A stretch of 64,000 nt of DNA from an uncultured Methanosarcinaceae archaeon (GTDB lineage Archaea > Halobacteriota > Methanosarcinia > Methanosarcinales > Methanosarcinaceae). Below the pieces are notes generated by a model, which was not told the DNA's origin, searched no databases, and saw only the letters and a list, made by a program, of their open reading frames with translations. Position 1 is the stretch's first letter. Every line of letters begins with the position of its first letter. A program made the position numbers and the translations under genes. This document shows positions 13 to 55,949 of the stretch, piece by piece. Location: assembly GCA_963847185.1 (NCBI GenBank), contig CAWJYV010000008.1:96001-160000 (forward strand), written 5' to 3'.

Positions 13-414
13 ATGAGTGTTTTGAGTTTTGAGGTAGGGAGTTTGTTTCAGATTATGCGAAAAGCTGGCAGAATCGAAATTCTCCTTGAAGCAAAGCAGA
101 TCGGAGAAGATTACCTGCTAACCCTTACAGGTGGAAGAGAACATGTAGGAGCTGTTGCCATAGGGCTTTTTGATGAAAAAAGCCAGAGGACAAGCTCGTC
201 AGTGATAACATTGCCCGGGCACAGGGAAGAACAACTTGCCCTTCAGGGTGCAAGACAGGTCAGCAAAGCCACGAAGAGAACTACAGTATTTGTTGCAGGC
301 ATCCATCAGGATAATATCAGCCCTGAAGAGATAATGGGTATAGTTTCAGTCTCAGAGGAAATGGTAGCAAGTTTTATTGATTTTTTTGAAAGGCAGAGAA
401 GAAGAAATGAATAA
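13..414 (+). CDS. LpdD-like prenylated-flavin chaperone family protein
   Basis: 133 aa with LTGG..HVGAVA and GHREE motifs typical of the family; overlaps ubiX. Confidence 0.65.
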   Translation: MSVLSFEVGSLFQIMRKAGRIEILLEAKQIGEDYLLTLTGGREHVGAVAIGLFDEKSQRTSSSVITLPGHREEQLALQGARQVSKATKRTTVFVAGIHQDNISPEEIMGIVSVSEEMVASFIDFFERQRRRNE

Positions 415-1838: not shown

Positions 1839-3782
1839 ATGAACGGAGGAATCAGAATAAGTAAGTTAACAATGTTACTCTTAGCTCTTCTTATTTTAGT
1901 TTCAATTCCAGGACTCGGAAACGCGGCTGAAATTTTTGTTCAGCCAGGAAATTCAATACAAACTGCTGTGAACAATGCAAGTCCTGGTGACATAATTACA
2001 GTAAAAGCAGGTAACTATTCAGAAAATATTAAAATCACTACAGGAAATCTTACGCTCAGATCGGAATCCGGAAACCCTGATAATACCATAATCCAGGCAA
2101 AGAGTTTTGGCAATATATTTCTTTTACAAGGAAACAATATAAAAATCACCGGCTTCAAGATTATTGGCTCAACCAGATTCAGTTGCGTAGGAGTCAATCT
2201 GTCTTCAGCCAGTAACTGTACGGTTGAGAACAACAAATTTTTGAACAATGCGCGTGGAATCTTTCTCCTCAGGTCCAATGGGAATGCGGTATTAAAGAAT
2301 AATATTGCTGATAGTAGAGAATATGGAATTGCACTTCAATATTCTACGAATAATATTGTCTCAGGAAATATTGCTTCTGAAAGTCAAAGAGGAATTTATT
2401 TTGGCACTTCTGATGATAATATCTTCTCACGCAATATTATCCAAAACAATAGTGTCTTCGGTCTTTTTGTCTGTGGCAGAAGTGATAGGAATCTGATTTA
2501 CGATAATTACTTCAATGACACCAGTATGACTATCCGAAATGGAACCGGAAACGTCTATTATATTACAAAAATCGCAGGTACTAACATCGTCGGCGGACCC
2601 AATATAGGAGGCAACTTCTGGGCAAAACCTGACGGAAAAGGATTTTCGCAGACTGCGGTGGATAAAGATGGGGACGGAATTTCCGATTCTGTTTACAAGA
2701 ACTTAATGGGAAGCAAATATACAGACTCCTTCCCTCTCGTTGATCCGAACTCCCCTGAGCCAGTCCTTCCTGTTGCAGCGTTCAGCAGCAATATAAGTTC
2801 AGGAGACTCACCTCTTGTTGTCAGCTTTGCTGATAAAAGCACAGGGACGCCCAGCACATGGAAATGGAATTTTGGAGACGGAACTTATTCGACAGGCAAA
2901 AATCCAGTACATACCTATTCTGCGGCAGGAAATTACACAGTGTCACTTACAGTAAGCAGTAATGCAGGTAGCAATACAACAATTAAATCGAATTATATAA
3001 AAGTGACAGCGAATAATACAACACAAAAACCTGTCGTAAGCTTCTGGGGCTCACGAACTTCAGGGACGGCTCCCCTGATTCTAGGCTTTACTGATGCAAG
3101 CACAGGAACACCAACTGCATGGAACTGGAGTTTTGGAGATGGAACGTACTCAACAGTCCAGGGTCCAAGGCATACTTACTCAAAAGCAGGAAATTATACG
3201 GTAACGCTTACCGCAAGCAATGCAGCCGGAGGCGGGACGAAAACCAGAACTGATTACATAAAGGTAGCGGCGCCTGTACAGAAGCCAGTTGCTGGTTTCA
3301 GCAGCAATGTTACTTCCGGAAACTTACCCTTACATGTGGCTTTCACTGATGCAAGTATAGGAACACCGACGACATGGAACTGGAGCTTTGGAGACAGCAC
3401 GTATTCAACCCAGCAGAATCCTATACACACCTATTCAAAGTCAGGAAGCTACACAATAACACTTACAGCAAGCAATTCTGCAGGCAGTAATACGACAACA
3501 AAGTCCGGTTATATAAAAGTGACAGAAGCCGCACAAAAACCTGTTGTAAGCTTCTGGGGTTCACGAACTTCAGGAACTGCTCCACTGACTATCGGTTTTA
3601 CGGATTCAAGTACAGAGTTCCCAATTGCGTGGAACTGGAGTTTTGGAGATGGAACCTATTCAACAGTCCAAAGCCCAAGACATACTTACTCAAAAGCAGG
3701 AAATTATACGGTAACGCTTACGGCAAGCAATGAAGTCGGAAGCGGGACGAAAACAAGAAGTAACTATATAAAAATAGCATAA
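1839..3782 (+). CDS. Secreted cell-surface protein, NosD/CASH beta-helix plus 4 PKD domains
   Basis: Hydrophobic signal peptide; beta-helix repeats; GGPNIGGNFWAKPDG motif; four W-x-W-x-FGD PKD units. Confidence 0.9.
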   Translation: MNGGIRISKLTMLLLALLILVSIPGLGNAAEIFVQPGNSIQTAVNNASPGDIITVKAGNYSENIKITTGNLTLRSESGNPDNTIIQAKSFGNIFLLQGNNIKITGFKIIGSTRFSCVGVNLSSASNCTVENNKFLNNARGIFLLRSNGNAVLKNNIADSREYGIALQYSTNNIVSGNIASESQRGIYFGTSDDNIFSRNIIQNNSVFGLFVCGRSDRNLIYDNYFNDTSMTIRNGTGNVYYITKIAGTNIVGGPNIGGNFWAKPDGKGFSQTAVDKDGDGISDSVYKNLMGSKYTDSFPLVDPNSPEPVLPVAAFSSNISSGDSPLVVSFADKSTGTPSTWKWNFGDGTYSTGKNPVHTYSAAGNYTVSLTVSSNAGSNTTIKSNYIKVTANNTTQKPVVSFWGSRTSGTAPLILGFTDASTGTPTAWNWSFGDGTYSTVQGPRHTYSKAGNYTVTLTASNAAGGGTKTRTDYIKVAAPVQKPVAGFSSNVTSGNLPLHVAFTDASIGTPTTWNWSFGDSTYSTQQNPIHTYSKSGSYTITLTASNSAGSNTTTKSGYIKVTEAAQKPVVSFWGSRTSGTAPLTIGFTDSSTEFPIAWNWSFGDGTYSTVQSPRHTYSKAGNYTVTLTASNEVGSGTKTRSNYIKIA

Positions 3783-4314
3783 AAGCCTGATTTATACAAT
3801 GTTTACGGATAACATAAGAGACAAATAAACAAAAGTTGCAAATTTCTGGGACTACGGTCCCGGAAAAGTAACTTTGAATAATGTATCACCAGCATAACAC
3901 AAAACCACGTATGGATGAGTTCCCAAATTCGAGCATTATTTCTCAGGCTCAAACAACTTTTATTAACCGGCCAGGCAACCGATTTTTATTCGTGGGGCTT
4001 TTAAATTTTCAATCCCCTTTTACTTTTTTATATAGAGTCCATATCTAACCCAGATTTTTTAGTTTTGTTTTTTACCTCCGGATAAGGACGTGAATGACAA
4101 AAATTACAAGATTAATATTAATAAAAAATTTATATAGTAAGGGATTATAGAATTATAAATATTTGATAACTATCTGATCCAAAAAAATGGTTCTCAGATT
4201 TTCTGTCTATAAAAAACATGGGGATTGGAGTGTAAGTGCCAAGTTTGCTTACTTTAATTACTCGCTATTTTTTCGTTTAATAGAGTAAAATATTGTAGTA
4301 AGTTTAAAGAAATC

Positions 4315-7044
4315 TTGAATAAAATAATGAAGGATGAAAGCGTGAAAAAAAATCCTGATGAAAAAAACGATTCAAGTCTGAAAAAGGTAATAATAACCCT
4401 CAGTGAACTTCTGATTATATTTCTGGTCATAGGTTTAACGTTGGTAATGACAGGTACAGAGATTTCAGAAAACAACAGTACATTAAGTGTCGAGGAAAAT
4501 ACCGTAAACAATGAGACCTCAACCCCAGAAAGAAGCTACCAGCTACCTTTAAATGGAAATCTCACTGATGAAAAAGGCTTGAACATTGAGAATAACTCCG
4601 AAAATCTCGGACTCGCACCAGAAAATCCTGAATTTGTCAAGGAAACAAGGAACAAACTATACACTCAAACAGAACAGCCTGCAGAAGAGAATAAAACAGG
4701 TCTAACACCTGCACCTCTGGACCTTCAGTATCTCAGCGATATTTCTACTGTCGAAACGTCTGCTTCGGACAGTTATGACCCGCGGGATGCAAATTCTATT
4801 GTCCAGGCAGCGGGGAATGAAGTATCTGCTTCAAATAGCTATGATCTACGTGTTCTCAATAAGGTGACAAGTGTAAAAGATCAGGCTGATGCAGGAGTTT
4901 GCTGGACATTTGCAAGTTATGCTTCCTTAGAATCATATTTAAAGCCTGGAGAAAATCGAGATTTTTCTGAAAATCACATGAAAAACCTGCTTTCTTCTGC
5001 ATATGCGGAAGGTTTCGACCGTGGTGCCAATGACGGTGGAAATAGTTTTCAGTCTGCTGCTTATCTTACCCGCTGGGACGGGCCTGTAGATGAAAACGAC
5101 GATCCTTACTCTCCCTACTCAGAAATCTCCTCTGAGAGTTTGCCTTTACAGAAACACGTACAGAACGTACTTTTTATCCCGGATAGGGACAGTCCTCTTG
5201 ATAATGATGAGATTAAGTGGGCAGTCCAGAATTACGGAGCTGTATATACTACAATGTACTATGATAATTTTTATTCCCCTGCTAATTACAGCTATTTCTA
5301 TAATGGGACTTCACGATCTAACCATGCTGTGGCCATTGTAGGCTGGAACGACTCTTTTGACAGAAACAAATTTTCCAGGGTCCCTGCAGGAAATGGGGCA
5401 TTTATAATAAAAAACAGCTGGGGTTCCGGATGGGGTGAAAACGGATATTTCTATGTTTCATATTATGATCCAAGGATAGGAACCTACAATACAGTTATGA
5501 CGGCTGAAAGCCCTGATAATTATAAATCCATCTACCAGTACGATCCCTTTGGCTGGGTTAGCAGTGTGGGATACTCCAACCCCACTTGCTGGTGTGCAAA
5601 TGTCTTTACTGCAAAATCCGACGAAATTCTCAAAGCTGTAAGTTTCTATACAACGGACTCAAATTGCAACTATGAAATTTATATATATACTAATCCGGAG
5701 ACTGGCCCGATAAATCAATCAGGTCCTGTTCTCTCAAAGAGCGGGACAATCTCTGCAGCAGGCTATCACACAGTCCCCCTGGATTCTGATATTGAAATCC
5801 AAAACGGCCAAAAGTTCTCAGTTGTTCTGAAGTTCAACACCCCTGAATACGGTTATCCGGTTGCTATAGAAAAGCCCATTACAGGCTGGAGCAGTAAAGC
5901 AAAAGCAAACGCAGGAGAGAGCTTCATTAGTAGTAGCGGACAAACCTGGATAGACATTACGACTTATTTCTCGAATTCAAACGTATGCATCAAGGCTTTT
6001 ACTGTGCCAGGAACTCTGTCAGGAACTGTTCCTCCTGTAGCAAACTTCTCTGTAACTCCAAACTCAGGAAATGCTCCTCTTCAGATCAGTTTTACTGATA
6101 CCAGTACAGGATCCCCTACTGCCTGGAACTGGAACTTTGGAGACGGAAATACTTCAAGCGAACAGAATCCAAAGCATACTTATTTTGCAGCAGGAAATTA
6201 CACGGTAGCATTTACAGTGAGCAATGCTGCCGGGACAGACACAGTAACAAGGGCAGGTTACATAAATGTAAAAACAGCTCCTCCAAAGTTGCGTGCTGAT
6301 TTCTCTGCCTCTCCGACCTCAGGGAATGCCCCAATGAGAGTTGTTTTTACTGATGCCAGTACAGGGTCTCCAACTTCATGGAGATGGAGTTTTGGAGACG
6401 GGACATATTCAACCTCCAAGAACCCTTCACACACATACAGTAAAGCAGGGAAATATACGATCAGTTTGACAGTAAGAAATACTGCTGGGAGTATTATAGC
6501 AACGAAATCCGGCTATATAAATGTAGGAGCTCCCCTGAAAGCTCCGGTTTCCGCGTTTTCCGCATCTACAACTTCAGGATATGCTCCAATTAAAGTCACG
6601 TTTACAGACAGCAGCGCAAATTCACCGACTTCATGGAGATGGAATTTTGGAGATGGAATTACCTCAACCGAGCAGAATCCGGAGCATACGTACAGTAAAA
6701 CGGGAAGATATACCGTCAGCCTGGTAGTAAGGAATTCTATAGGAAGTAACACAGCAACGAAATCTAGATATATAAATGTCTTAACTCCCTTGAAAGTTCC
6801 GATTGCTTCTCTTTCAGCCTCCCCTACTTCTGGAAAGGCGCCTTTGAGGGTACAGTTTACTGACAGGAGCACAGAATCTCCAATTTCGTGGAGATGGAGT
6901 TTTGGGGACGGGACTTATTCCACATCAAAAAATCCTGCACATACATACAGCAAAGCAGGAAGGTACACTGTTACGCTGACAACAACAAATGCCAGAGGAA
7001 GTAACACTAAAACAGTAGCCGGGTATATTACAGTCTCCAGATAA
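4315..7044 (+). CDS. Papain-like (C1A) cysteine peptidase with lectin-like domain and 4 PKD domains
   Basis: KDQ...GVCWTF (catalytic Gln/Cys), NHAVAIVGW (His), IKNSWG (Asn); N-terminal TM segment; PKD repeats. Confidence 0.9.
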   Translation: MNKIMKDESVKKNPDEKNDSSLKKVIITLSELLIIFLVIGLTLVMTGTEISENNSTLSVEENTVNNETSTPERSYQLPLNGNLTDEKGLNIENNSENLGLAPENPEFVKETRNKLYTQTEQPAEENKTGLTPAPLDLQYLSDISTVETSASDSYDPRDANSIVQAAGNEVSASNSYDLRVLNKVTSVKDQADAGVCWTFASYASLESYLKPGENRDFSENHMKNLLSSAYAEGFDRGANDGGNSFQSAAYLTRWDGPVDENDDPYSPYSEISSESLPLQKHVQNVLFIPDRDSPLDNDEIKWAVQNYGAVYTTMYYDNFYSPANYSYFYNGTSRSNHAVAIVGWNDSFDRNKFSRVPAGNGAFIIKNSWGSGWGENGYFYVSYYDPRIGTYNTVMTAESPDNYKSIYQYDPFGWVSSVGYSNPTCWCANVFTAKSDEILKAVSFYTTDSNCNYEIYIYTNPETGPINQSGPVLSKSGTISAAGYHTVPLDSDIEIQNGQKFSVVLKFNTPEYGYPVAIEKPITGWSSKAKANAGESFISSSGQTWIDITTYFSNSNVCIKAFTVPGTLSGTVPPVANFSVTPNSGNAPLQISFTDTSTGSPTAWNWNFGDGNTSSEQNPKHTYFAAGNYTVAFTVSNAAGTDTVTRAGYINVKTAPPKLRADFSASPTSGNAPMRVVFTDASTGSPTSWRWSFGDGTYSTSKNPSHTYSKAGKYTISLTVRNTAGSIIATKSGYINVGAPLKAPVSAFSASTTSGYAPIKVTFTDSSANSPTSWRWNFGDGITSTEQNPEHTYSKTGRYTVSLVVRNSIGSNTATKSRYINVLTPLKVPIASLSASPTSGKAPLRVQFTDRSTESPISWRWSFGDGTYSTSKNPAHTYSKAGRYTVTLTTTNARGSNTKTVAGYITVSR

Positions 7045-7490
7045 ATCCCGTACTGAAAAGATAAAGGTTAAAGGGAGTGAGCAGGGTTATTGATCAAAGC
7101 CAGAAAAATGACTTTATTAGCCTTTTCCGCTCTCATTAACTTTTTTCGGCAAGATCGGTGAGCCATTTTTTTCGTTAATATTTTTGCACGGTTGTTAAAA
7201 TTTCCCTCTTGTTTGGATTTATTTATTTTTTATACTCTTTTAATTTCCAAAAGTACATTTTCTTATGTCTTTCGCCTAAACTAATTTAATTTTATCAGAT
7301 TCTAATGCATCTGATTCTCGTTCTAAGATAAATCTCTCAAGTTAGAGTGGTTTGAGTCCAGAGTAGTTTGATTCCAGATTTAAAGAAGCAATTTGATTCC
7401 AGATAAGAAACAAATAAAAATCATTAAAGAGTAAACTGTATTAATATTTTGTACTTCGGGAAGTAAATGGAAACAGAGAAGGAATAATTA

Positions 7491-9245
7491 ATGAATAACA
7501 AAGAAATATTTTTTTCAATAGTTTTAATTCTTTTGTCCTTAATTTTCGCATCACCTATGACATCAGCGTCTACTACACAATCTGTAAATGACCAGCTTAC
7601 TATTAATGAAACTCAAATAACTATTAATAAACTGCATCAGAGCAATCCTGCAATCTATGGGGACAGAATAGTGTGGAAGGATGAAAGAAATGGAAACGGT
7701 GATATTTATGTATACAATCTTTCAACTTCCCGAGAAACTCAGATAACTACTGACAAATCAGATCAATATCTGCCTTTTGTTTATGGTGATCGGGTAGTGT
7801 GGGAGGATGAACGAAATGGAAACGTGGATATCTACATGTACAACCTTTCCACTTCGAAGGAAAGCCGGATAACCTCCAATAAGTCAGATCAGCTGTGGGC
7901 TTCAATCTACGGTAACAGAATGGTATGGGTGGACACCCGATATGGAAACTACGATATATTCATGTACGATCTCTCCACTTCAAAAGAAACTCAGATAACC
8001 ACCAGTAAATCAAATAAGCTCTTTCCCAGAATCTACGAGGACAGGATTGTGTGGGAGGATTATCGAAATGGAAAATATGATCTTCGCATGTATAATCTCT
8101 CCACTTCAAAAGAAAACCGGATTGTTGCCAATATATCATATTCTGCAATTGCTTCTATCTATGATGATAAGATAGTATGGTCGGATGACCGCAATGAACC
8201 GCGAAATTACGATATATATCTGTACAATCTTTCCACATCCAGAGAAACCCGGATAACCACCAATAAATCAGACCAGTACTTACCTGTTGTCTCTGAAAGC
8301 AGGATAGTTTGGTACGATTTGAGGAACGGAAACAGGGATATCTACATGTACGACCTTTCAACATCCCGAGAAACTCAGATAAGCAGCGCTGAATCAAATC
8401 AATATAATCCTGCTATTTACGGGAACAGGATAGTGTGGGAAGATGATCGAAATGGAAACTTGGATGTCTATATGTGCACTCTTGGGTCTAACCTTCCTGT
8501 TTCTGCTTTTTCTGCATCCCCTACTTCGGGAAATGCCCCACTGAAAATCTCATTCACTGATGGGAGTACAGGATCACCTACTTCCTGGAACTGGAGTTTT
8601 GGAGACAAAACATATTCAACTTCTAAGAATCCCTCACATACATTCAGTAAAGCAGGGAAGTACACAGTTAGCCTAACCATTAAGAACGCAGCTGGGAGCA
8701 ATGAAGCAACAAAGTTCGGTTATATTGTTGTAAATGCTATGAAAACTCCTGTTACTTCTTTATCCGCCTCTCCACGCTCTGGAAATGCTCCTTTGAAAGT
8801 TAAGTTTGCTGATAAAAGTACCAACAGTCCAACGGCATGGAAATGGAGCTTTGGAGACGGAACTTATTCAACCTCTAAGAACCCTTCACATACGTACAGC
8901 AAAGCCGGAAAATACACGGTCAGTTTAACAGTAAAGAACGCCGCCGGAAGTAACACCAAAACAGTGTCCAAATATATTGTTGTAAACAAGGTTGTGAAAC
9001 CTGTTGCTGCTTTCTTGGCAACCCCTGCCTCAGGAAAATTGCCGTTGAAGGTGCAGTTTACTGACAAGAGTACCAATAGTCCTACATCGTGGAAATGGAG
9101 CTTTGGAGACGGAACATATTCAACCTCCAAAAATCCTTCACACACGTACAGTAAAGCAGGAAGGTACACTGTTTACTTAACAGCAAAGAATTCAGCAGGC
9201 AGCAGCACAAAAACAATGTCTGGATATATTACAGTTTCCAAATGA
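7491..9245 (+). CDS. Cell-surface protein with TolB-like beta-propeller repeats plus 3 PKD domains
   Basis: Repeated P-x-IYGDRIVW-x-D-x-RNGN-x-DIYMY-x-LST units; signal peptide; PKD repeats. Confidence 0.9.
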   Translation: MNNKEIFFSIVLILLSLIFASPMTSASTTQSVNDQLTINETQITINKLHQSNPAIYGDRIVWKDERNGNGDIYVYNLSTSRETQITTDKSDQYLPFVYGDRVVWEDERNGNVDIYMYNLSTSKESRITSNKSDQLWASIYGNRMVWVDTRYGNYDIFMYDLSTSKETQITTSKSNKLFPRIYEDRIVWEDYRNGKYDLRMYNLSTSKENRIVANISYSAIASIYDDKIVWSDDRNEPRNYDIYLYNLSTSRETRITTNKSDQYLPVVSESRIVWYDLRNGNRDIYMYDLSTSRETQISSAESNQYNPAIYGNRIVWEDDRNGNLDVYMCTLGSNLPVSAFSASPTSGNAPLKISFTDGSTGSPTSWNWSFGDKTYSTSKNPSHTFSKAGKYTVSLTIKNAAGSNEATKFGYIVVNAMKTPVTSLSASPRSGNAPLKVKFADKSTNSPTAWKWSFGDGTYSTSKNPSHTYSKAGKYTVSLTVKNAAGSNTKTVSKYIVVNKVVKPVAAFLATPASGKLPLKVQFTDKSTNSPTSWKWSFGDGTYSTSKNPSHTYSKAGRYTVYLTAKNSAGSSTKTMSGYITVSK

Positions 9246-9313
9246 ATGTATTAAATAAAAAATAAGCATGATGGCAGACTGTTTCTCTTTCTGTCTTTAA
9301 TTAAAAGAAGTAG

Positions 9314-19494: not shown

Positions 19495-19857
19495 TGCGAG
19501 AGAGGCTGGACGGCTGACGGGCCTGATGGTCTGAGGAAAGTCTCCCCACCGCTCCGGACACACGAATATCTGTAAAGGATATCGGGCGAGAGCCCGGGCT
19601 CTGGCACAGAAACGATAACCACTCTCTGAAAATGCGATGATGCAAATGCTGAGGTCTCAGGGAAAATGGATGAAACGGCGAATCCTCGTGGGTGCAAGTT
19701 GGAAATTGGGAATAAGATCAGTCCGGAATCTCCCGATTGATTTTGGAAACGCATAGCCGAATGCCGTCACTGCAAGAGTCCTCCAGGAACGTTTCCTTCA
19801 CTGATATGTGAGGAAATTTTTGCAGGAACAGAAGGGAGCTTACATGCCTCACTCGCA
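19495..19857 (+). ncRNA. rnpB: Ribonuclease P RNA
   Basis: Terminal helix TGCGAG/CTCGCA; GAGGAAAGTCTCCC, ACAGAAA, GGATGAAACGG, GGTGCAAG and AACAGAAGGGAGCTTAC conserved boxes; TATA upstream, T-tract downstream. Confidence 0.93.
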
Positions 19858-29733: not shown

Positions 29734-31792
29734 TATTAAATCGGATGTAAAGGAAACTGTAAAGGCTTTCATTCAGACACTTGTCAGTATCCTGGTCAGG
29801 GAAGCTACTAAGACGATGATTAAAAACCTGACTGAACGACAAAAAAAGAGATTTGAAGACAAGATTAAAGATATGTCGGATGATCAACTCTCACAATATT
29901 TAGATGAAAATCCTTATTTCAAAAATTCACTGGAAGATGCTCTAAAGTCATTGGGTAGTACCCACTCATCAAAAGAAACAGTATCTTTAATGGATAAATT
30001 ACAGTCAGTTTATGAAGGCACTTCTATCAAGAAACCGATAAGCTCCTTTATCTGGCCAGCTCCTAAAATAATTCTTGTGACAGTAGTCGGAATAGCGTTA
30101 TTGTCCTCATTTGCCGTTCAAGCATTCTCGGAAAACCGGGATAATAACACCTCCCTCCCCGGTAATAATTCCACCCTCCTTTTCGATAATAATACCACTT
30201 CCACACAATCACCCATAGCAAATTTCACTACCAACGTCACTAATGGTAGCTCACCCCTTACTGTTCAGTTTTCAGATTTGTCAGAAAATACAAAAGAAAG
30301 GAGCTGGGACTTTGGAGATGGAAATAATTCTAAAGAGTTGAATCCTGTACATACTTACTTTGCAAAAGGAAACTATACAGTTAACCTTACCGCAATCAAT
30401 GGAACAAAGACAAATTCAATAATTGCAACAATAACAGTTCTGGAAATGCCAGTACAATCAATATCTGGAGGGTCGATGTCTGGTTCATCAAAGCCAGCAA
30501 AATCAACGGATTCAGGGGATGGTACACTTCCTGTAGCAAATTTCAGTACCAATATCACATCTGGTTATGCTCCCCTTACTGTACAATTTAACGACAGTTC
30601 TCAAAATGCGACTTCCTGGAGCTGGGCCTTTGGAGATGGTCAGATATCTTCAGCTCAGAATCCAATTAATACGTATTATTCTGCTGGAACTTATACAGTT
30701 AGCTTGACTGCAAGTAACGCTAACGGTTCCAATATCTCGACAAAATCAAATTTGGTTACAGTTGATAAAACAACTCAAATACTTAACTGGAATAACCCAG
30801 CTGACATAACCTTTGGAACAGCACTTAGCACAACGCAGTTAAACGCATTTTCTTCGGTCCCTGGAACCTTTGCTTATACTCCATCTTCAGGAACTGTATT
30901 GAATGCAGGTTCCCATATATTGCACGTAGCTTTTACACCTAATGATGCTGTAAATTTCCCCAATGCATCAAAGGATGTTACAATCAATGTCAAGCCAGTT
31001 GCTCCTACAATTAACTGGAGCGATCCTGATGACAGAATCTACGGGGAATCAATAGAGGAATGGAACGTATATGATGGGGAAGTAGTACGAGGGGTATTAA
31101 ACGCGGAATTCCTGGGTATAGATGGAAATCCGTTACCTGGAAACCATACCTATACGCCAGCAACAGGAACTGTACTGAGTGCAGGTACACATACATTGCA
31201 TGTTGATTTCACACCTGCTGATACTGCAAATTACACCAATGCATCAAAGGATGTTCAAATCAATATCCTGCAAGCAACTCCAGTTATTTACTGGACATAT
31301 CCTGGAGCCATAAAATATGGAGAATCAATAATGGAACCTGAAGTGGGTGACGTACTACCAGGGGTATTAGATGCGGAATTCATAGGCATGGATGGAAATC
31401 CGTTACCTGGAAATTATTCCTATACTCCAGCAGCAGGAACTGTATTGAGTGCGGATACACATACATTGCATGTTGATTTCACACCCACTGATGCAGCGAA
31501 CTACACCAATGCATCAAAGAATGTTACAATCAATGTCATGCAAGCGACTCCTGAGATTACATGGAATATCCCGAATGAAATATACGACAACGAAAAACTG
31601 CTTTCTCAGGTATATGCACAGGCTAATGTAGCTGGAACTTTTGTCTATTTAGCTGATGGAATTCCAGTAGAAGTAGATACAAACCTGAGTGAAGGCGATC
31701 ATACATTGACCGTTACATTCACACCCACTGATACAAACTACACTACAAAAACCGAGATTATTGATATCAATGTTAAGATGTATATTAATTAA
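29726..31792 (+). CDS. Membrane-anchored surface protein: soluble N-terminal domain, TM, 2 PKD and Ig-like repeats
   Basis: TM IILVTVVGIALLSSFAVQA; WDFGDG/WAFGDG PKD units; repeated I-x-W..P...YTP..GTVL..G.HTLHVDFTP units; GGTGG RBS before ATG 29726. Confidence 0.8.
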   Translation: MSDIKSDVKETVKAFIQTLVSILVREATKTMIKNLTERQKKRFEDKIKDMSDDQLSQYLDENPYFKNSLEDALKSLGSTHSSKETVSLMDKLQSVYEGTSIKKPISSFIWPAPKIILVTVVGIALLSSFAVQAFSENRDNNTSLPGNNSTLLFDNNTTSTQSPIANFTTNVTNGSSPLTVQFSDLSENTKERSWDFGDGNNSKELNPVHTYFAKGNYTVNLTAINGTKTNSIIATITVLEMPVQSISGGSMSGSSKPAKSTDSGDGTLPVANFSTNITSGYAPLTVQFNDSSQNATSWSWAFGDGQISSAQNPINTYYSAGTYTVSLTASNANGSNISTKSNLVTVDKTTQILNWNNPADITFGTALSTTQLNAFSSVPGTFAYTPSSGTVLNAGSHILHVAFTPNDAVNFPNASKDVTINVKPVAPTINWSDPDDRIYGESIEEWNVYDGEVVRGVLNAEFLGIDGNPLPGNHTYTPATGTVLSAGTHTLHVDFTPADTANYTNASKDVQINILQATPVIYWTYPGAIKYGESIMEPEVGDVLPGVLDAEFIGMDGNPLPGNYSYTPAAGTVLSADTHTLHVDFTPTDAANYTNASKNVTINVMQATPEITWNIPNEIYDNEKLLSQVYAQANVAGTFVYLADGIPVEVDTNLSEGDHTLTVTFTPTDTNYTTKTEIIDINVKMYIN

Positions 31793-43845: not shown

Positions 43846-44802
43846 TTAAGTTTTTTGCTTTTTTCCCACAAAAAACCATTGATCATAAGTTCCTTCTGAG
43901 TCCGTATTATCTATAATTTCCCCTTTGATCCCTGTCCTGCGCAAGGCATCGGCGAGTATTTCAATTTCAGGCTTGCTACTAACCGTAAATAGCAAAAGAG
44001 CGTTTTCACGTGCAACCTTGACAGCCTCCCTCATAATTCCTGTCCAGAGTTCTTTATTAAACTCATAGACAAGCCCAAGCATAAATCCCATTACCGCATC
44101 AAAGCTCTCAGGCTCAAAGTATTTTGAAAGAACAGTTGCATCCATCACAGTGACTTTTTGCGGGTTAAGAACTCCCTGTTCAAGTCCCTGACAGACCGCA
44201 CATTTGTTAATCTCCACTGCCAGAGGATCCAGTCCAAGCCTGTACAGGGCAAGTGTGGACATCCCATTCCCGCAGCAAACTTCAAGCAGCCTACCTTCAG
44301 GGTAAAGACCCTTTTTTTGAAGAAAATCAAAGATCTCTGCTACCCTCCGTACACGGTTTTCTGAGAAAACATTTCCATATGATTCAGGTCTGACAGTGCA
44401 TCCAGTACAGAGATTCCTACTTACAAGCATCAGTGAATAGTACTCATTCACCGCATCGTGCCAGTGTTCAGAAGAAAGTTCAATGTCCTTTTCAGGAGGA
44501 TTGAAAACAAGAATAGAATCTACCGCCGCCTCAAACTTTTTCTTCAATGGAGCTGTCGCAAAAAATCCCGTAAAAACCGACCAGAAATCCACAGGAACAT
44601 CCTCATCTGCCGGATTGAATAACGCTAGCCCTATTGTATGATCCCCTTCCCTAACCCTGAGAAGCCGCATTCGCCCTTCCTCCGAAAAGTTCCTGATACC
44701 TTCAAGATACTGAAGCGTACGCTGAATAGTTCTCTGGGCGAGATAACTCTCCTCAACGAAGTAGATCTCTTCATCAATGCCTAGGAGTTCCTGTAAAAGC
44801 AT
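43846..44802 (-). CDS. Class I SAM-dependent methyltransferase
   Basis: LLEVCCGNG motif I; VMDA; FDAV. Confidence 0.75.
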   Translation of the reverse strand: MLLQELLGIDEEIYFVEESYLAQRTIQRTLQYLEGIRNFSEEGRMRLLRVREGDHTIGLALFNPADEDVPVDFWSVFTGFFATAPLKKKFEAAVDSILVFNPPEKDIELSSEHWHDAVNEYYSLMLVSRNLCTGCTVRPESYGNVFSENRVRRVAEIFDFLQKKGLYPEGRLLEVCCGNGMSTLALYRLGLDPLAVEINKCAVCQGLEQGVLNPQKVTVMDATVLSKYFEPESFDAVMGFMLGLVYEFNKELWTGIMREAVKVARENALLLFTVSSKPEIEILADALRRTGIKGEIIDNTDSEGTYDQWFFVGKKQKT

Positions 44803-44841
44803 ATTTGTGTAGATCAGGATAATCTCATATCAAGATTTCGA

Positions 44842-45060
44842 AATTCTAAACCATGAATTAGTCTTCTTGAGCGCAGTGAAAAGGACCGCGTACTGTTGCG
44901 ATTACATCGCAGCTCCCAGAAAATCTCTGATTTTCTGCGATCCCAAGGCGCAATTTGGAAAGCTGAACTCGTAATTCTAATTCATAAATTCGTCCTCTTG
45001 AGCTAGCGAAAAGGACCTCGTGCTCCCGATGCGAAACTCGGGATGCTCAACTCGGAATTT
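44842..45060 (+). repeat. Two tandem copies (long and short) of a structured intergenic repeat
   Basis: AATTCTAA..CATRAATT.GTC..CTTGAGC..AG.GAAAAGGACC core repeated at about 44842 and 44973; multiple hairpins. Confidence 0.8.
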
Positions 45061-45250
45061 ATAAAAATATTTATAGATAAACAAAGAGATAAATAAGCAC
45101 TAAAAGATAAATAAAGGGGAAAATGGGCATTAAAAGCTGAATAAGAGGAAAAAGGAGCCTAGCATAAGCAAAGTTATTTATAGGATCTAATTACAAAATC
45201 AAGGATTAAAAGGAATTAATATCAATAAAAAAAGTAGAATGGAGGATAAT

Positions 45251-45460
45251 ATGGCAAAAGTAATACCATTCGCACCAATAGAACGTTTAATAAGAACAGC
45301 AGGTGCTCACAGGGTAAGTGAAAGTGCAGGAATGGCTCTTACAGAAATTCTTGAAGAGTACGGACTTGATATTTCAAGGGAAGCAATAAAACTCGCAGAG
45401 CATGCAGGCAGAAAAACCGTAAAAGCTGAAGACATTAAATTAGCAAAAGAGATGCTTTGA
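45251..45460 (+). CDS. Archaeal histone
   Basis: IPFAPIERLIR..GA.RVS...A.HAGRKTVKAEDI histone fold; GGAGG RBS. Confidence 0.95.
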   Translation: MAKVIPFAPIERLIRTAGAHRVSESAGMALTEILEEYGLDISREAIKLAEHAGRKTVKAEDIKLAKEML

Positions 45461-55680: not shown

Positions 55681-55810
55681 CCATAGCTGAGCCACCCGAA
55701 TTGCGATTCGGGATCGCAGGAAATCCAAGATTTCCTGGGAGTTGCACTGTAAGTGCAACAGTCCGCTGTCCTTTTCACTCGCTGCGCTCGCTCAAGCAGA
55801 CTAATTTATG
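55681..55810 (-). repeat. Third copy of the structured intergenic repeat
   Basis: Reverse complement reads CATAAATTAGTCTGCTTGAGCG...GTGAAAAGGAC...GTTGCACTTACAGTGCAAC..CAGGAAATC/GATTTCCTG..CCCGAAT-CGCA-ATTCGGG. Confidence 0.8.
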
Positions 55811-55949
55811 GCGGCAATTATTGAGGAAACTTTGAACACGATTAAGGAGAAAAGAAAAAAGATCGAACCGAAGCATCTGGAAACTCCATCTTTAATCTGT
55901 TTTACCTCCGCATTTTCGTTGCGGCTTTTTCGCAGGGATAGAAAAAAGT

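Follow-up and report, generated by a model that had tools for sequence, protein, structure and literature searches.

Three copies (A, B and C) of a non-coding repeat in the 64,000-nt stretch of Methanosarcinaceae DNA analysed here (the window) belong to a dispersed family with 91 matches at 58 sites in the 4.04-Mb source genome (nhmmer, E<=0.01), whose predicted fold, a head hairpin followed by an H-type pseudoknot, is what evolution demonstrably conserves. The two window loci contribute 3 of the 91 matches, and a family is thus at hand rather than a chance occurrence. The reading that we favour, at roughly an even chance, is that of a structure-dependent selfish, non-autonomous repeat resembling the bacterial REP and BIME sequences; its main rival, which we rate as possible but well short of probable, is a structured RNA with a role in the host. 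This many-copy repeat is apparently undescribed, as no description of it was found in full-text literature searches or in Rfam. At gathering score, the sole match of Rfam release 15 in the whole window is RNase P (19498-19854), and over 44780-45120 there are no matches at E<=10; the suggestion that the repeat might prove to be a described Rfam family therefore finds no match there.

Crude ORF calls place 55 of the 58 sites outside ORFs, with both orientations found, in intergenic regions that are convergent (12), divergent (13) or tandem (33). Units in tandem contexts are co-oriented with their neighbours in 22 instances and not in 11, a weak orientation bias. The hits within each of the 58 clusters lie on one strand, head to tail, with no mixed clusters, and the array periods in the genome are 15, 37 and 71-77 nt. 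Runs of orientation on contigs C8, C7 and C10, counted by hand for a replication-strand or regional bias, were no different from chance. GC skew tracks gene strand. The family was found only in Methanosarcina-type methanogens: units are present in 17/18 other genomes of the genus and in 0/12 genomes of the order's other families, and the family-level range is g1 8/8, g22 6/6 and g11 1/2, with none or single weak matches elsewhere. Named matches are to Methanosarcina or to higher ranks that contain it, with the one exception of a MAG labelled Methanobacterium sp.

Units A and B lie between a methyltransferase-like gene (43846-44802, minus strand) and an archaeal histone gene (45239-45460, plus strand; PF00808, E 3.6e-16), and unit C is upstream of an NFACT-family gene (PF05833). 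Their parts, as read from the sequence, are the following:

44843-44971, plus strand: unit A with its trailing microrepeat
44843-44860, plus strand: leader of unit A, ATTCTAAACCATGAATTA, a 5' part of weak conservation or a spacer between units
44861-44886, plus strand: head hairpin of unit A, GTCTT..AGGAC (helix 1)
44887-44894, plus strand: linker of unit A, CGCGTACT, whose positions 2-5 (GCGT) are the 5' strand of the pseudoknot
44895-44913, plus strand: hairpin M1 of unit A, GTTGCGAT-TAC-ATCGCAGC (helix 3)
44917-44937, plus strand: hairpin M2 of unit A, CAGAAAATC-TCT-GATTTTCTG (helix 4)
44942-44958, plus strand: tail hairpin of unit A, CCCAA-GGCGCAA-TTTGG (helix 5), with loop GCGC as the 3' strand of the pseudoknot
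44959-44971, plus strand: degenerate 3' microrepeat after unit A, AAAGCTGAACTCG
44972-45055, plus strand: unit B with its trailing microrepeat
44972-44991, plus strand: leader of unit B, TAATTCTAATTCATAAATTC
44992-45016, plus strand: head hairpin of unit B, GTCCT..AGGAC
45017-45042, plus strand: linker of unit B, CTCGTGCT, joined directly to the tail hairpin CCCGA-TGCGAAAC-TCGGG (short form)
45043-45055, plus strand: degenerate microrepeat after unit B, ATGCTCAACTCGG
55695-55814, minus strand: unit C, long form, with the leader reaching to 55802
55801-55768, minus strand: head of unit C
55767-55760, minus strand: linker of unit C, AGCGGACT
55759-55741, minus strand: M1 of unit C
55737-55717, minus strand: M2 of unit C
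55712-55695, minus strand: tail of unit C, with loop ATCGCAAT

The hairpins and the terminal stem that the first-pass annotation had described in copy A are present as given above, the terminal stem being CCCAA/TTTGG, as are GTTGCACT-TAC-AGTGCAAC and CAGGAAATC-TTG-GATTTCCTG in the copy that it had placed at 55681-55810, which is on the minus strand; copy B indeed keeps the GTCCT/AGGAC and CCCGA/TCGGG stems and has no middle hairpins. A repeat search of the window pairs A with C as a 95-nt inverted repeat that is 79% complementary.

Across the family, a unit is 70-130 nt long, with 2-4 hairpins and the pseudoknot, and consists in order of a weakly conserved leader, the head hairpin, an 8-nt linker, an optional two-hairpin cassette (M1-M2) and the tail hairpin, which is often trailed by 15-nt microrepeats, (AAGCGAAACTCGGG)n, seen after many copies. 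The head stem has the family consensus GTCCT/AGGAC and a variant GTCTG/CAGAC. Readings of the unit as a self-cleaving ribozyme, a C/D box or a K-turn, judged by eye, were set aside; apart from what may be a tandem G.A within the stem of the head hairpin, nothing speaks for them. In alignment A1, leader columns 9-18 are partly conserved, the leader differing even among near-identical copies, and the four bases 5' of the head vary (TTAG, GTAG, ATAG, TCAG, TAAG), with no conserved tag of the GTAG or CGTC type before the head hairpin. In a minority form, seen at C8:848990-849189 and at C8:855800-855997, tandem 37-nt repeats each make up one minimal pseudoknot unit. Copies that are "truncated" at the 5' side start at a common motif, GCGAAAAGGAC, and appear to have arisen by recombination. 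Similarity ends at the unit borders, and the flanks hold no conserved promoter or terminator. The absence of terminal inverted repeats, remarked on from the window alone, was borne out: the leader and head are not complementary to the tail TCGGG, and no such repeats were seen when six pairs of near-identical copies were aligned together with the flanking sequence. The same six pairs show no regular target-site duplication. At a second repeat, one comparison of filled with empty sites gave a duplication of ~22-27 nt, although these filled sites hold paralogous copies, which may go back to a single event.

Selection on secondary structure, first proposed from the window copies, is supported by covariation among 85 long copies from many Methanosarcina genomes, aligned with MAFFT blind to structure and compared with shuffled and slid controls. 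Cells of the predicted helices are paired in 93.9% of instances, against 88.5 +/- 0.3 in shuffles, and 150 cells are changed on both sides, against 55 +/- 5 in shuffles (0/500 of which reach 150) and 14-37 in the slid controls. Head helix 1 has seven pairs, four of them changed on both sides (for instance, pair 23-50 is UA in 51 copies and GC in 23), and helix 3 in M1 has double compensations at pair 68-77 (GC 45, AU 28, GU 6) and pair 70-76 (AU 50, CG 27). The claim of the first-pass annotation that both middle stems carry paired substitutions between A and C is clear for M1 and needs refining for M2, where position 89-104 of helix 4 is AC in 49, AU in 31 and GC in 3 of the 85 copies; most copies have an A.C mismatch, and because A and C each repair this consensus mismatch in a different way, the stem shows two single-sided departures from the consensus in place of one double change.

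A fifth covarying helix was missed by that first reading. The loop of the tail hairpin pairs outside its own segment, with the linker, and the pairing covaries (G-C 34, U-A 21, C-G 16), which places the predicted structure in the H-type pseudoknot class. In this helix 2, columns 56-59 pair with 118-121, each of the four pairs shows double-sided changes, and pairing holds in 89.1% of cells. At the junctions of short forms, the bases at position 2 of the linker and position 5 of the loop make a Watson-Crick pair in 60/64, a wobble in 2 and a mismatch in 2, and unit B is predicted to be a compact H-type pseudoknot in which TCGT pairs with GCGA. A further pair, joining position 6 of the linker to position 8 of the loop, was rejected, having a mutual information of 0.09 bits and a geometry incompatible with the helix. 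Mutual information is 0.85 bits for M1, 0.67 for the head, and 0.80 and 0.47 for pseudoknot pairs 56-121 and 59-118, the latter two values each being reached by 0/5000 permutations, whereas between different helices it is <=0.2 bits even though M1 sits between the pseudoknot strands. Paired columns at 0.47-0.85 bits and inter-helix values this low therefore point to structural constraint and not to subfamily descent.

The same data bear on whether the units could instead be sites in double-stranded DNA, either arrays of a protein-binding motif (a repeated GCGAAA, for example) or recombination hot-spots, with the palindromes incidental. Units often lie just upstream of promoters (histone, NFACT, NOB1), GAAGCGAAA is found repeatedly in the head and tail loops, and the regular array periods would suit such sites; however, a binding site predicts neither Watson-Crick covariation between columns separated by 65 nt, which holds regardless of the polymorphisms in between, nor the exchange of one wobble for another (U.G to G.U), and the units are spread over convergent, divergent and tandem regions alike. 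We consider this explanation improbable.

What the covariation leaves to be weighed is chiefly whether the fold serves the repeat or the host. A host-functional module, acting in cis as a UTR or upstream element or bound by protein as a small RNA, would be kept by the host beside many genes, with the hairpins and pseudoknot as its working fold and dispersal a historical by-product. It would account for the covariation, pseudoknot included, and for pair 59-118 (U.G 66, G.U 8, U-A 4, C-G 1), which is standard only as forward-strand RNA or single-stranded DNA. The M2 position 89-104, read on the opposite strand, is also RNA-like (G.U 49, A-U 31, G-C 3), but the two strand-specific signals then favour opposite strands. 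Furthermore, among the sporadic non-Watson-Crick cells of single copies, G.U is no more frequent than A.C (71 against 84), as neutral decay would predict and as if selection acted on propagating lineages and not on each resident copy. Contigs with family units in a sludge metatranscriptome reach a k-mer depth of <=5956, compared with 15-20 for the histone contig, but such contigs show neither strand nor transcript ends and do not prove transcription; these units come from loci other than the window, and other RNA contigs cover the histone gene. Against a host RNA stand the M. mazei unit inside a spurious ORF, at an RNA baseMean of 6.3 (the sole M. mazei unit with expression figures), the weak orientation bias and the lack of conserved flanking promoters or terminators. 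No promoter of the units' own was seen in the sequence, and the available part of the Ribo-seq supplements of PMC11456600, which list ORFs only, has no sRNA entry at two M. mazei unit coordinates.

Orthologous sites cut both ways. A unit stands in the same orientation upstream of the NFACT promoter in 15/29 other species, units occur in the same place and orientation at the histone site in 10/18, and one lies upstream of the NOB1 gene both in the source genome and in M. mazei (NC_003901.1). Copies thus persist at orthologous sites across species, and units fixed in place and orientation near the same promoter fit a host function as well as they fit an ancient insertion; yet the NFACT site is without a unit in 12-14/29 species, and even genomes that are 95% identical carry different modules at an orthologous site. 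In comparison with a 92-98%-identical relative, modules were turned over at 2/4 loci, with a difference either in the M1-M2 cassette or in the entire 3' part, and the linker and loop change together where modules differ between close relatives. Among the source genome's own copies, the best pair is 90% identical and the median is 70%, and by this measure those copies are old. Several other species have copies, chosen by an exact 26-nt pattern, that are 98-99% identical at unrelated loci of one genome and have sharp ends, which reads as recent spread or homogenisation; gene conversion instead of transposition could produce such near-identity.

Under the selfish-repeat reading, A, B and C would be old members of a modular, non-coding, intergenic family restricted to Methanosarcina, analogous in function to bacterial REP/BIME or to non-canonical MITEs. 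The single-stranded unit would fold into the head hairpin and an H-type pseudoknot, formed by four linker nucleotides with the tail-hairpin loop, and the optional M1-M2 cassette would sit in loop 1 of that pseudoknot. The folded form, as single-stranded DNA or RNA, may be the substrate of a putative trans-acting enzyme that copies the unit to new intergenic sites, after which copies would drift neutrally while their modules are reshuffled by ectopic recombination or gene conversion and by slippage; individual copies may stay long at one site. A and B would lie upstream of the histone promoter in a hot-spot that is variable, and no sign that either regulates the histone gene was seen.

Such an enzyme was sought among Y1 HUH transposases, following the proposal in the first-pass annotation of a REP/REPIN or IS200/IS605-derived palindrome mobilised as single-stranded DNA in trans by a RAYT or TnpA protein. 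The units are hairpin-rich and intergenic, form BIME-like mosaic arrays, apparently without terminal inverted repeats or target-site duplications, and reach folding z-scores of -5.5 with DNA parameters; moreover, the source genome has six Y1_Tnp matches, two of them intact, and Y1 genes occur in 38/41 genomes of the genus. Nevertheless, around 12 Y1 loci from seven genomes, and around the single TnpB gene, no unit-like sequence was found out to ~1-1.5 kb (nhmmer E<=10), so that the expected copies flanking tnpA or tnpB did not appear. The elements at Y1 loci are ~730-nt IS200-type copies with different ends, the units have no similarity to resident IS200/IS605 ends or the tnpB 3' flank (nhmmer E<=10), and motif scans against those ends yielded one chance 8-mer. 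Counts of Y1 and of units are unlinked across genomes: those richest in Y1 (G018, G043, G045 and G047, with 37-68 matches) have 0-1 weak unit matches, and the complete genome G040 has six units and no Y1 match. Given also the missing tag, the absence of inverted doublets and a length of 70-130 nt plus pseudoknot as against 20-40-nt palindromes, a Y1-driven mechanism appears very improbable. Two other ideas were discarded on the content of the 99.8%-complete genome: a retro-element, suggested by the 3' microrepeats and 5'-truncated copies, as there is no RVT_1 match, and an IS110 element with bridge RNA, as there is no DEDD (IS110) transposase match. No transposase-like neighbour recurs within 3 kb of the 58 sites; one surface-protein-like family occurs near 6/58, and no other protein family recurs beside units.

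The units might also be left-over ends of a larger element, such as a casposon, a plasmid or virus that had integrated, or an IS whose ends are long and structured. The units at C8:1653-2792 have behind them duplicated 3' fragments of a tRNA gene, identified by eye as tRNA-Leu; integrative elements that target tRNA genes leave this pattern, and Methanosarcina casposons are described in the available text of PMC4779613 as targeting tRNA-Leu; some units, moreover, lie inside bigger repeats. But the tRNA link holds at 1/58 loci, every head in the source genome has its own tail within ~200 nt (20/20 doubtful cases checked) with no layout of head, genes and tail, no neighbouring gene recurs, and phage and plasmid collections and a pattern scan of viral contigs gave no unit match. 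We regard this origin as the most improbable of those considered.

Returning to the repeat as a fold-dependent element, we would tentatively suggest that it represents a new kind in archaea, which would be either mobile by way of an enzyme that reads the fold (and is not a Y1 HUH, a DDE transposase with terminal inverted repeats, an IS110 or a resident reverse transcriptase) or a domesticated pseudoknotted module of RNA or single-stranded DNA, read by a Methanosarcina protein at dozens of promoter-proximal sites. If either form is true, recognition would centre on the covarying pseudoknot of linker and loop, whose loop 1 can take up the two-hairpin cassette. Among methanogens, Methanosarcina species serve as the principal genetic models, and there are ~58 of these intergenic sites per genome, often adjoining promoters. 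Errors in the M. mazei reference annotation can already be traced to the repeat: the start given for the NOB1 gene MM_2036 falls within a unit, and MM_RS15430, listed as a "hypothetical protein", consists of a unit with its microrepeats. The repeat offers a practical marker for strain typing, and it confounds work on sRNAs, small ORFs and assemblies in the genus.

Several known systems share features with these units. The antitoxin RNAs of type III toxin-antitoxin systems are ToxI-like tandem pseudoknot repeats directly upstream of a toxN-family gene, and some loci of the present family likewise carry tandem 37-nt minimal pseudoknot repeats; in contrast, the array at C8:849050 lies between convergent genes and that at C8:855860 between tandem genes, with no toxN-like context seen at either. 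IS200/IS605 elements have palindromic sub-terminal hairpins and rely on base pairing between guide and cleavage sites, and the units resemble them in the apparent absence of terminal inverted repeats and target-site duplications, in sub-terminal hairpins and in a short covarying pairing to a distant tetranucleotide. However, the pairing partner in the unit is the loop of the tail hairpin and not a flanking cleavage site, no fixed target tetranucleotide lies 5' of the unit, and there is no likeness to the IS200-type ends of Methanosarcina. With MITEs, as far as the available text of PMC11602168 describes them, the units have in common that they are small, non-coding, intergenic, genus-specific and many-copy, with near-identical copies at unrelated loci, but they are without terminal inverted repeats, and neither a regular target-site duplication nor, among the resident neighbours examined, a parent IS sharing their ends was seen.

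A further set of parallels is bacterial. In the portions of the sources available, REP sequences are short imperfect palindromes of 20-40 nt with a GTAG- or CGTC-type tetranucleotide at one end (PMC3733652), and BIMEs arrange them as inverted doublets or in alternating orientation (PMC2817692). As characterised there and in the available text of bioRxiv 10.1101/2022.05.22.493013, REP/BIME and REPIN-RAYT systems share with the Methanosarcina family a high copy number, an intergenic location, hairpin formation, restriction to a lineage, mosaic arrays of modules, vertical persistence and a structure conserved over sequence. The Methanosarcina units differ in being archaeal, in their length and pseudoknot, and in having no GTAG/CGTC tag, no alternating doublets and no associated Y1 (RAYT) gene. 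The family is thus a rare archaeal counterpart of REP/BIME with an evolutionarily supported pseudoknot, and it poses a testable question, namely what reads the fold.

Copies A, B and C are units of a real, lineage-restricted and modular repeat family whose helices, including a pseudoknot, are upheld by compensatory base change. The first-pass description of the two plus-strand copies and of the minus-strand copy was borne out on re-reading the sequence, with the following layout.

Family units in the window
44843-44971, plus strand: copy A, with leader, head, linker, M1, M2, tail and a degenerate short repeat
5' end of copy A, plus strand: leader, 18 nt
44861-44886, plus strand: head hairpin of copy A
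44887-44894, plus strand: linker of copy A, 8 nt
44895-44913, plus strand: hairpin M1 of copy A
44917-44937, plus strand: hairpin M2 of copy A
44942-44958, plus strand: tail hairpin of copy A, followed by the degenerate short repeat
44972-45055, plus strand: copy B, with leader, head, linker and tail, without M1 and M2
55695-55814, minus strand: copy C, a full long unit

A repeat search of the window paired 95 nt of copies A and C at 79% complementarity. The neighbours of copies A and B are a methyltransferase-like gene on one side and an archaeal histone gene on the other; copy C sits on the upstream side of an NFACT-family gene and on the downstream side of an FGE-sulfatase-like gene. Elsewhere in the window, long runs of tandem coding repeats of ~252-276 nt (families D1-D6) occupy 2761-9265 and 30300-31735, each with a GGAnnTGGnnnTTTGGAGAnGG core that we take to mark PKD-like (WxFGDG) surface-protein domains, and the archaeal RNase P RNA lies at 19498-19854 on the plus strand (RF00373, 198.6 bits).

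The proposal that selection acts on secondary structure was upheld by an alignment (A1) of 85 distinct long copies, made with MAFFT without regard to structure. The window's genome supplied 29 of the copies; the other 56, taken from named Methanosarcina-type records, were picked by an exact 26-nt M2 pattern, so that most of M2 is fixed in them. Over five helices and 34 pairs, 93.9% of cells are paired, compared with 88.5 +/- 0.3% in 500 column shuffles (none reaching the observed value) and 33-48% in slid structures. Cells changed on both sides number 150 (shuffles 55.0 +/- 5.3, 0/500 reaching; slid 14-37), 15 pairs show a double-sided change (shuffles 9.7 +/- 1.7, 2/500 reaching), and the covariation score is 0.175 (shuffles 0.085; slid 0.027-0.070), where the structure was taken from the same sequences, which alone favours it over its slid versions. 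Individual pairs, numbered by A1 column, illustrate the exchange: M1 pair 68-77 is GC in 45 copies, AU in 28 and GU in 6, M1 pair 70-76 is AU in 50 and CG in 27, head pair 23-50 is UA in 51 and GC in 23, and in a few copies the tail stem changes from CCCGA/TCGGG to GCAGA/TCTGC.

Foremost among the new results is a fifth helix, a pseudoknot that joins linker positions 2-5 (N-C-G-U) to tail-loop positions 5-2 (G-C-G-N'). Its pair 56-121 is G-C in 34 copies of A1, U-A in 21, C-G in 16 and other in 14, and its pair 59-118 is U.G in 66, G.U in 8, U-A in 4 and C-G in 1. Among 64 short-form junctions, gathered with a pattern that leaves the tested positions free, 60 have a Watson-Crick variable pair (G-C 32, U-A 20, C-G 8), two a wobble and two a mismatch. 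Mutual information tells structure apart from descent: it reaches 0.80 bits at 56-121, 0.47 at 59-118, 0.85 at M1 pair 70-76 and 0.67 at head pair 23-50, values that none of 5000 permutations attains, and only 0.02-0.20 bits for any column pair across different helices, including linker or loop against M1, though M1 sits between both. Matched paired columns with such low values between helices indicate that the modules recombine freely. By its geometry the short form is a compact H-type pseudoknot (in order, a 4-bp stem 1, a 3-nt loop, a 5-6-bp stem 2, a 1-nt loop and a 3-nt loop), and the long form places M1-M2 in pseudoknot loop 1.

A family profile made from 22 long copies returned 97 matches at E<=1 from the window's genome (4.04 Mb, 10 contigs), 91 of them at E<=0.01 and grouped in 58 clusters. 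Against a crude set of ATG-ORFs of >=90 aa, 55 of the 58 clusters lie outside called ORFs and the other three overlap a putative call. Of the sites, 33 lie between tandem genes, 13 between divergent and 12 between convergent ones, and in tandem contexts units are co-oriented with the genes in 22 cases and opposed in 11. The family is modular in build: 29 units of this genome are long, carrying M1-M2, short units join the tail straight to the linker, 1-5 microrepeats of 15 nt, (A/G)AGCGNAA(C/T)TCGGG, follow many tails, and every head has a tail within ~200 nt. Head-to-tail arrays with a period of ~71-77 nt consist of whole short units, and those with a 37-nt period of half-head, linker and tail. 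A GAAGCGAAA motif common to head loop and tail loop would provide a substrate for recombination and slippage.

Several units are housed at one fixed position of a second, palindromic repeat family (...AACCGCGGAAAACG..GGAAAGCGCTGAAAAACTGTGCC..TTATTCCGCGTTTTCCGCG...), with a direct duplication of 22-27 nt flanking them on both sides.

Copies of the second repeat in the window's genome (C, contig)
C8:912735-912933, filled
C7:718254-718446, filled
C8:872334-872682, filled
C6:80031-80407, filled
C1:329841-330076, filled
C7:926936-927133, filled
C10:396151-396309, paralogous empty copy, without unit and without duplication

Because the filled copies are paralogues, the duplication may have arisen only once. 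The same genome has four BLAST copies of a G-rich element (GGGTATTGGGGAGTTGGGG...TATATATAATTAAAG) at C9:2085-2142, C9:2359-2542, C9:4291-4560 and C1:152723-152885, all 35-222 nt from units, and the pairing recurs at locus L069 of Methanosarcina sp. Ant1 and at L221 of the relative G009. At C8:1653-2792 a tRNA gene, by eye tRNA-Leu, is followed by two partial 3'-end duplicates, each preceded by a unit, a layout that is a trace typical of tRNA-targeting integrative elements.

Some sites are long held. The window's genome and 15 of 29 other species (nhmmer E<=0.01) share an identically oriented unit upstream of the NFACT gene; of these 16 units, 4 are long and 12 short. The left junction, judged by eye, is conserved in a subset of these species, so the insertion is old there. 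The histone site carries units in 10 of 18 other species, nearly all on the plus strand and with differing module content; one species carries a minus-strand unit as well, and in two further species remnants resembling a tail can be made out by eye. The window's genome and M. mazei (NC_003901.1) both have a unit upstream of the NOB1 gene. Where the unit is absent in other species, at least two further repeat families fill the histone and NFACT hot-spots, one built of CAACCGTTGCGCCGGTTGATCACGCC... and the other of GCGAAGCCCGAAGGCTCGAAGCGTGCGAAGCCGCCGAGCCTGAG (read in loci L014, L025, L031 and L022, and L199, L194, L200, L195, L192 and L189). Such fixed orientation and long stay beside the same promoters speak for a host-functional structured RNA or single-stranded DNA module, the main rival explanation and a possible though less probable one, as do RNA-like wobble patterns. 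The signals of strand point both ways. The wobble-for-wobble swap at pair 59-118 favours the forward strand, on which the head mismatch can, by eye, give way to a bulged C plus tandem G.A pairs. The reverse strand is favoured by M2 position 89-104 (forward A.C 49, A-U 31, G-C 3), which becomes G.U, A-U and G-C there, and by the head's conserved C.A (78/85), which becomes U.G. Consensus folding energy is -63.3 reverse versus -55.7 forward, and single-copy z-scores are -1.5 to -3.1 with RNA and -1.8 to -5.5 with DNA parameters. Against the host-module explanation, sporadic non-Watson-Crick cells at the other 33 pairs number G.U 71, A.C 84 and other 84, so individual resident copies show no strand-specific purifying selection.

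Turnover is visible against the closest of the relatives compared, G009, whose flanks are 92-98% identical and whose assembly is fragmentary. Its NFACT site holds the short form and that of the window's genome the long form, the two differing by a 47-nt M1-M2 cassette, set precisely at the junction of ...ACT and CCCGA..., and by a linker/loop exchange that preserves complementarity (GCGT/GCGC versus GCGG/TCGC). At C1:152590, G009 has a long unit and the window's genome another arrangement with a short unit, common to a paralogous locus on C2; two further sites are alike in both. Within the window's genome, long copies are at most 90% identical to one another (median 70%), and several other genomes hold copies at unrelated loci that are 98-99% identical, picked by a pattern that biases towards intact copies. 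In six such pairs, similarity begins ~0-20 nt from the head stem and ends at TCGGG or the microrepeats, and no TIR or TSD was seen.

One sludge metatranscriptome holds contigs with family units from other loci at depth 20-5956, and a histone gene contig at 15-20; strand and ends are not readable in these contigs, and DNA may occur in such libraries. In M. mazei, MM_RS15430 (3581225-3581539, plus strand), a 105-aa 'hypothetical protein', is a spurious ORF consisting largely of a unit and its microrepeats, with very low counts in Ribo-seq data (RNA baseMean 6.3, RIBO baseMean 7.6; PMC11456600), and the annotated GTG start of the NOB1 gene MM_2036 (2434009-2434578, minus strand) lies inside a unit's linker and tail, with an in-frame ATG 63 nt downstream (coordinates from supplement file 6 of PMC11456600). 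Both the ORF and the start are probably annotation artefacts of the repeat.

Of 18 other genomes in the genus, 17 contain a match to copy A, as against none of 12 genomes from the order's other families. When genomes were sampled across the family, long copy L151 matched genera g1 (8/8), g22 (6/6) and g11 (1/2); g17 and g19 yielded only single weak matches (E about 1e-4), and no match came from elsewhere. The M2 pattern occurs at at least 80 named loci, and among the matches listed the titles are Methanosarcina or higher-rank labels containing it (Methanosarcinaceae, Methanosarcinales, Methanobacteriota), with the exception of one MAG labelled Methanobacterium sp.; the viral contigs, phages and plasmids searched gave no family match. 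Four genomes of the genus (G018, G043, G045 and G047) have 0-1 weak unit matches and may form a separate clade. Each also has 37-68 Y1_Tnp matches, many with internal stops, which represent a large IS200-type expansion and decay.

The suggestion that an HUH transposase moves the units in trans did not hold up. The window's genome has six Y1_Tnp matches (two intact) and one TnpB gene, with no RVT_1 or IS110 DEDD match, and no unit-like sequence lies near its Y1 or TnpB genes. Six further genomes contributed 10 Y1 loci, again with no unit-like sequence nearby; these loci are IS200-type copies of ~730 nt with ends unrelated to the units. Y1 and unit abundance do not track each other across the genus, and no recurrent transposase-like neighbour of units was found. 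The membership tests run came out against specific HUH/RAYT mobilisation.

No description of the family was found in the literature searched or in Rfam, nor in passages of PMC3432209, PMC4152357, PMC4779613, PMC3733652, PMC11602168 and bioRxiv 10.1101/2020.05.06.080432; 'undescribed' is provisional, ISfinder, Dfam and the 2009 M. mazei sRNA catalogue lying outside this search. From the neutral-looking decay, module shuffling and frequent loss, we infer that the fold serves propagation of the family rather than each resident copy. Because the fold would matter in this way, a selfish, non-autonomous element with a putative reader enzyme is the favoured reading, held with moderate confidence, and in its behaviour the family would then resemble REP/BIME.
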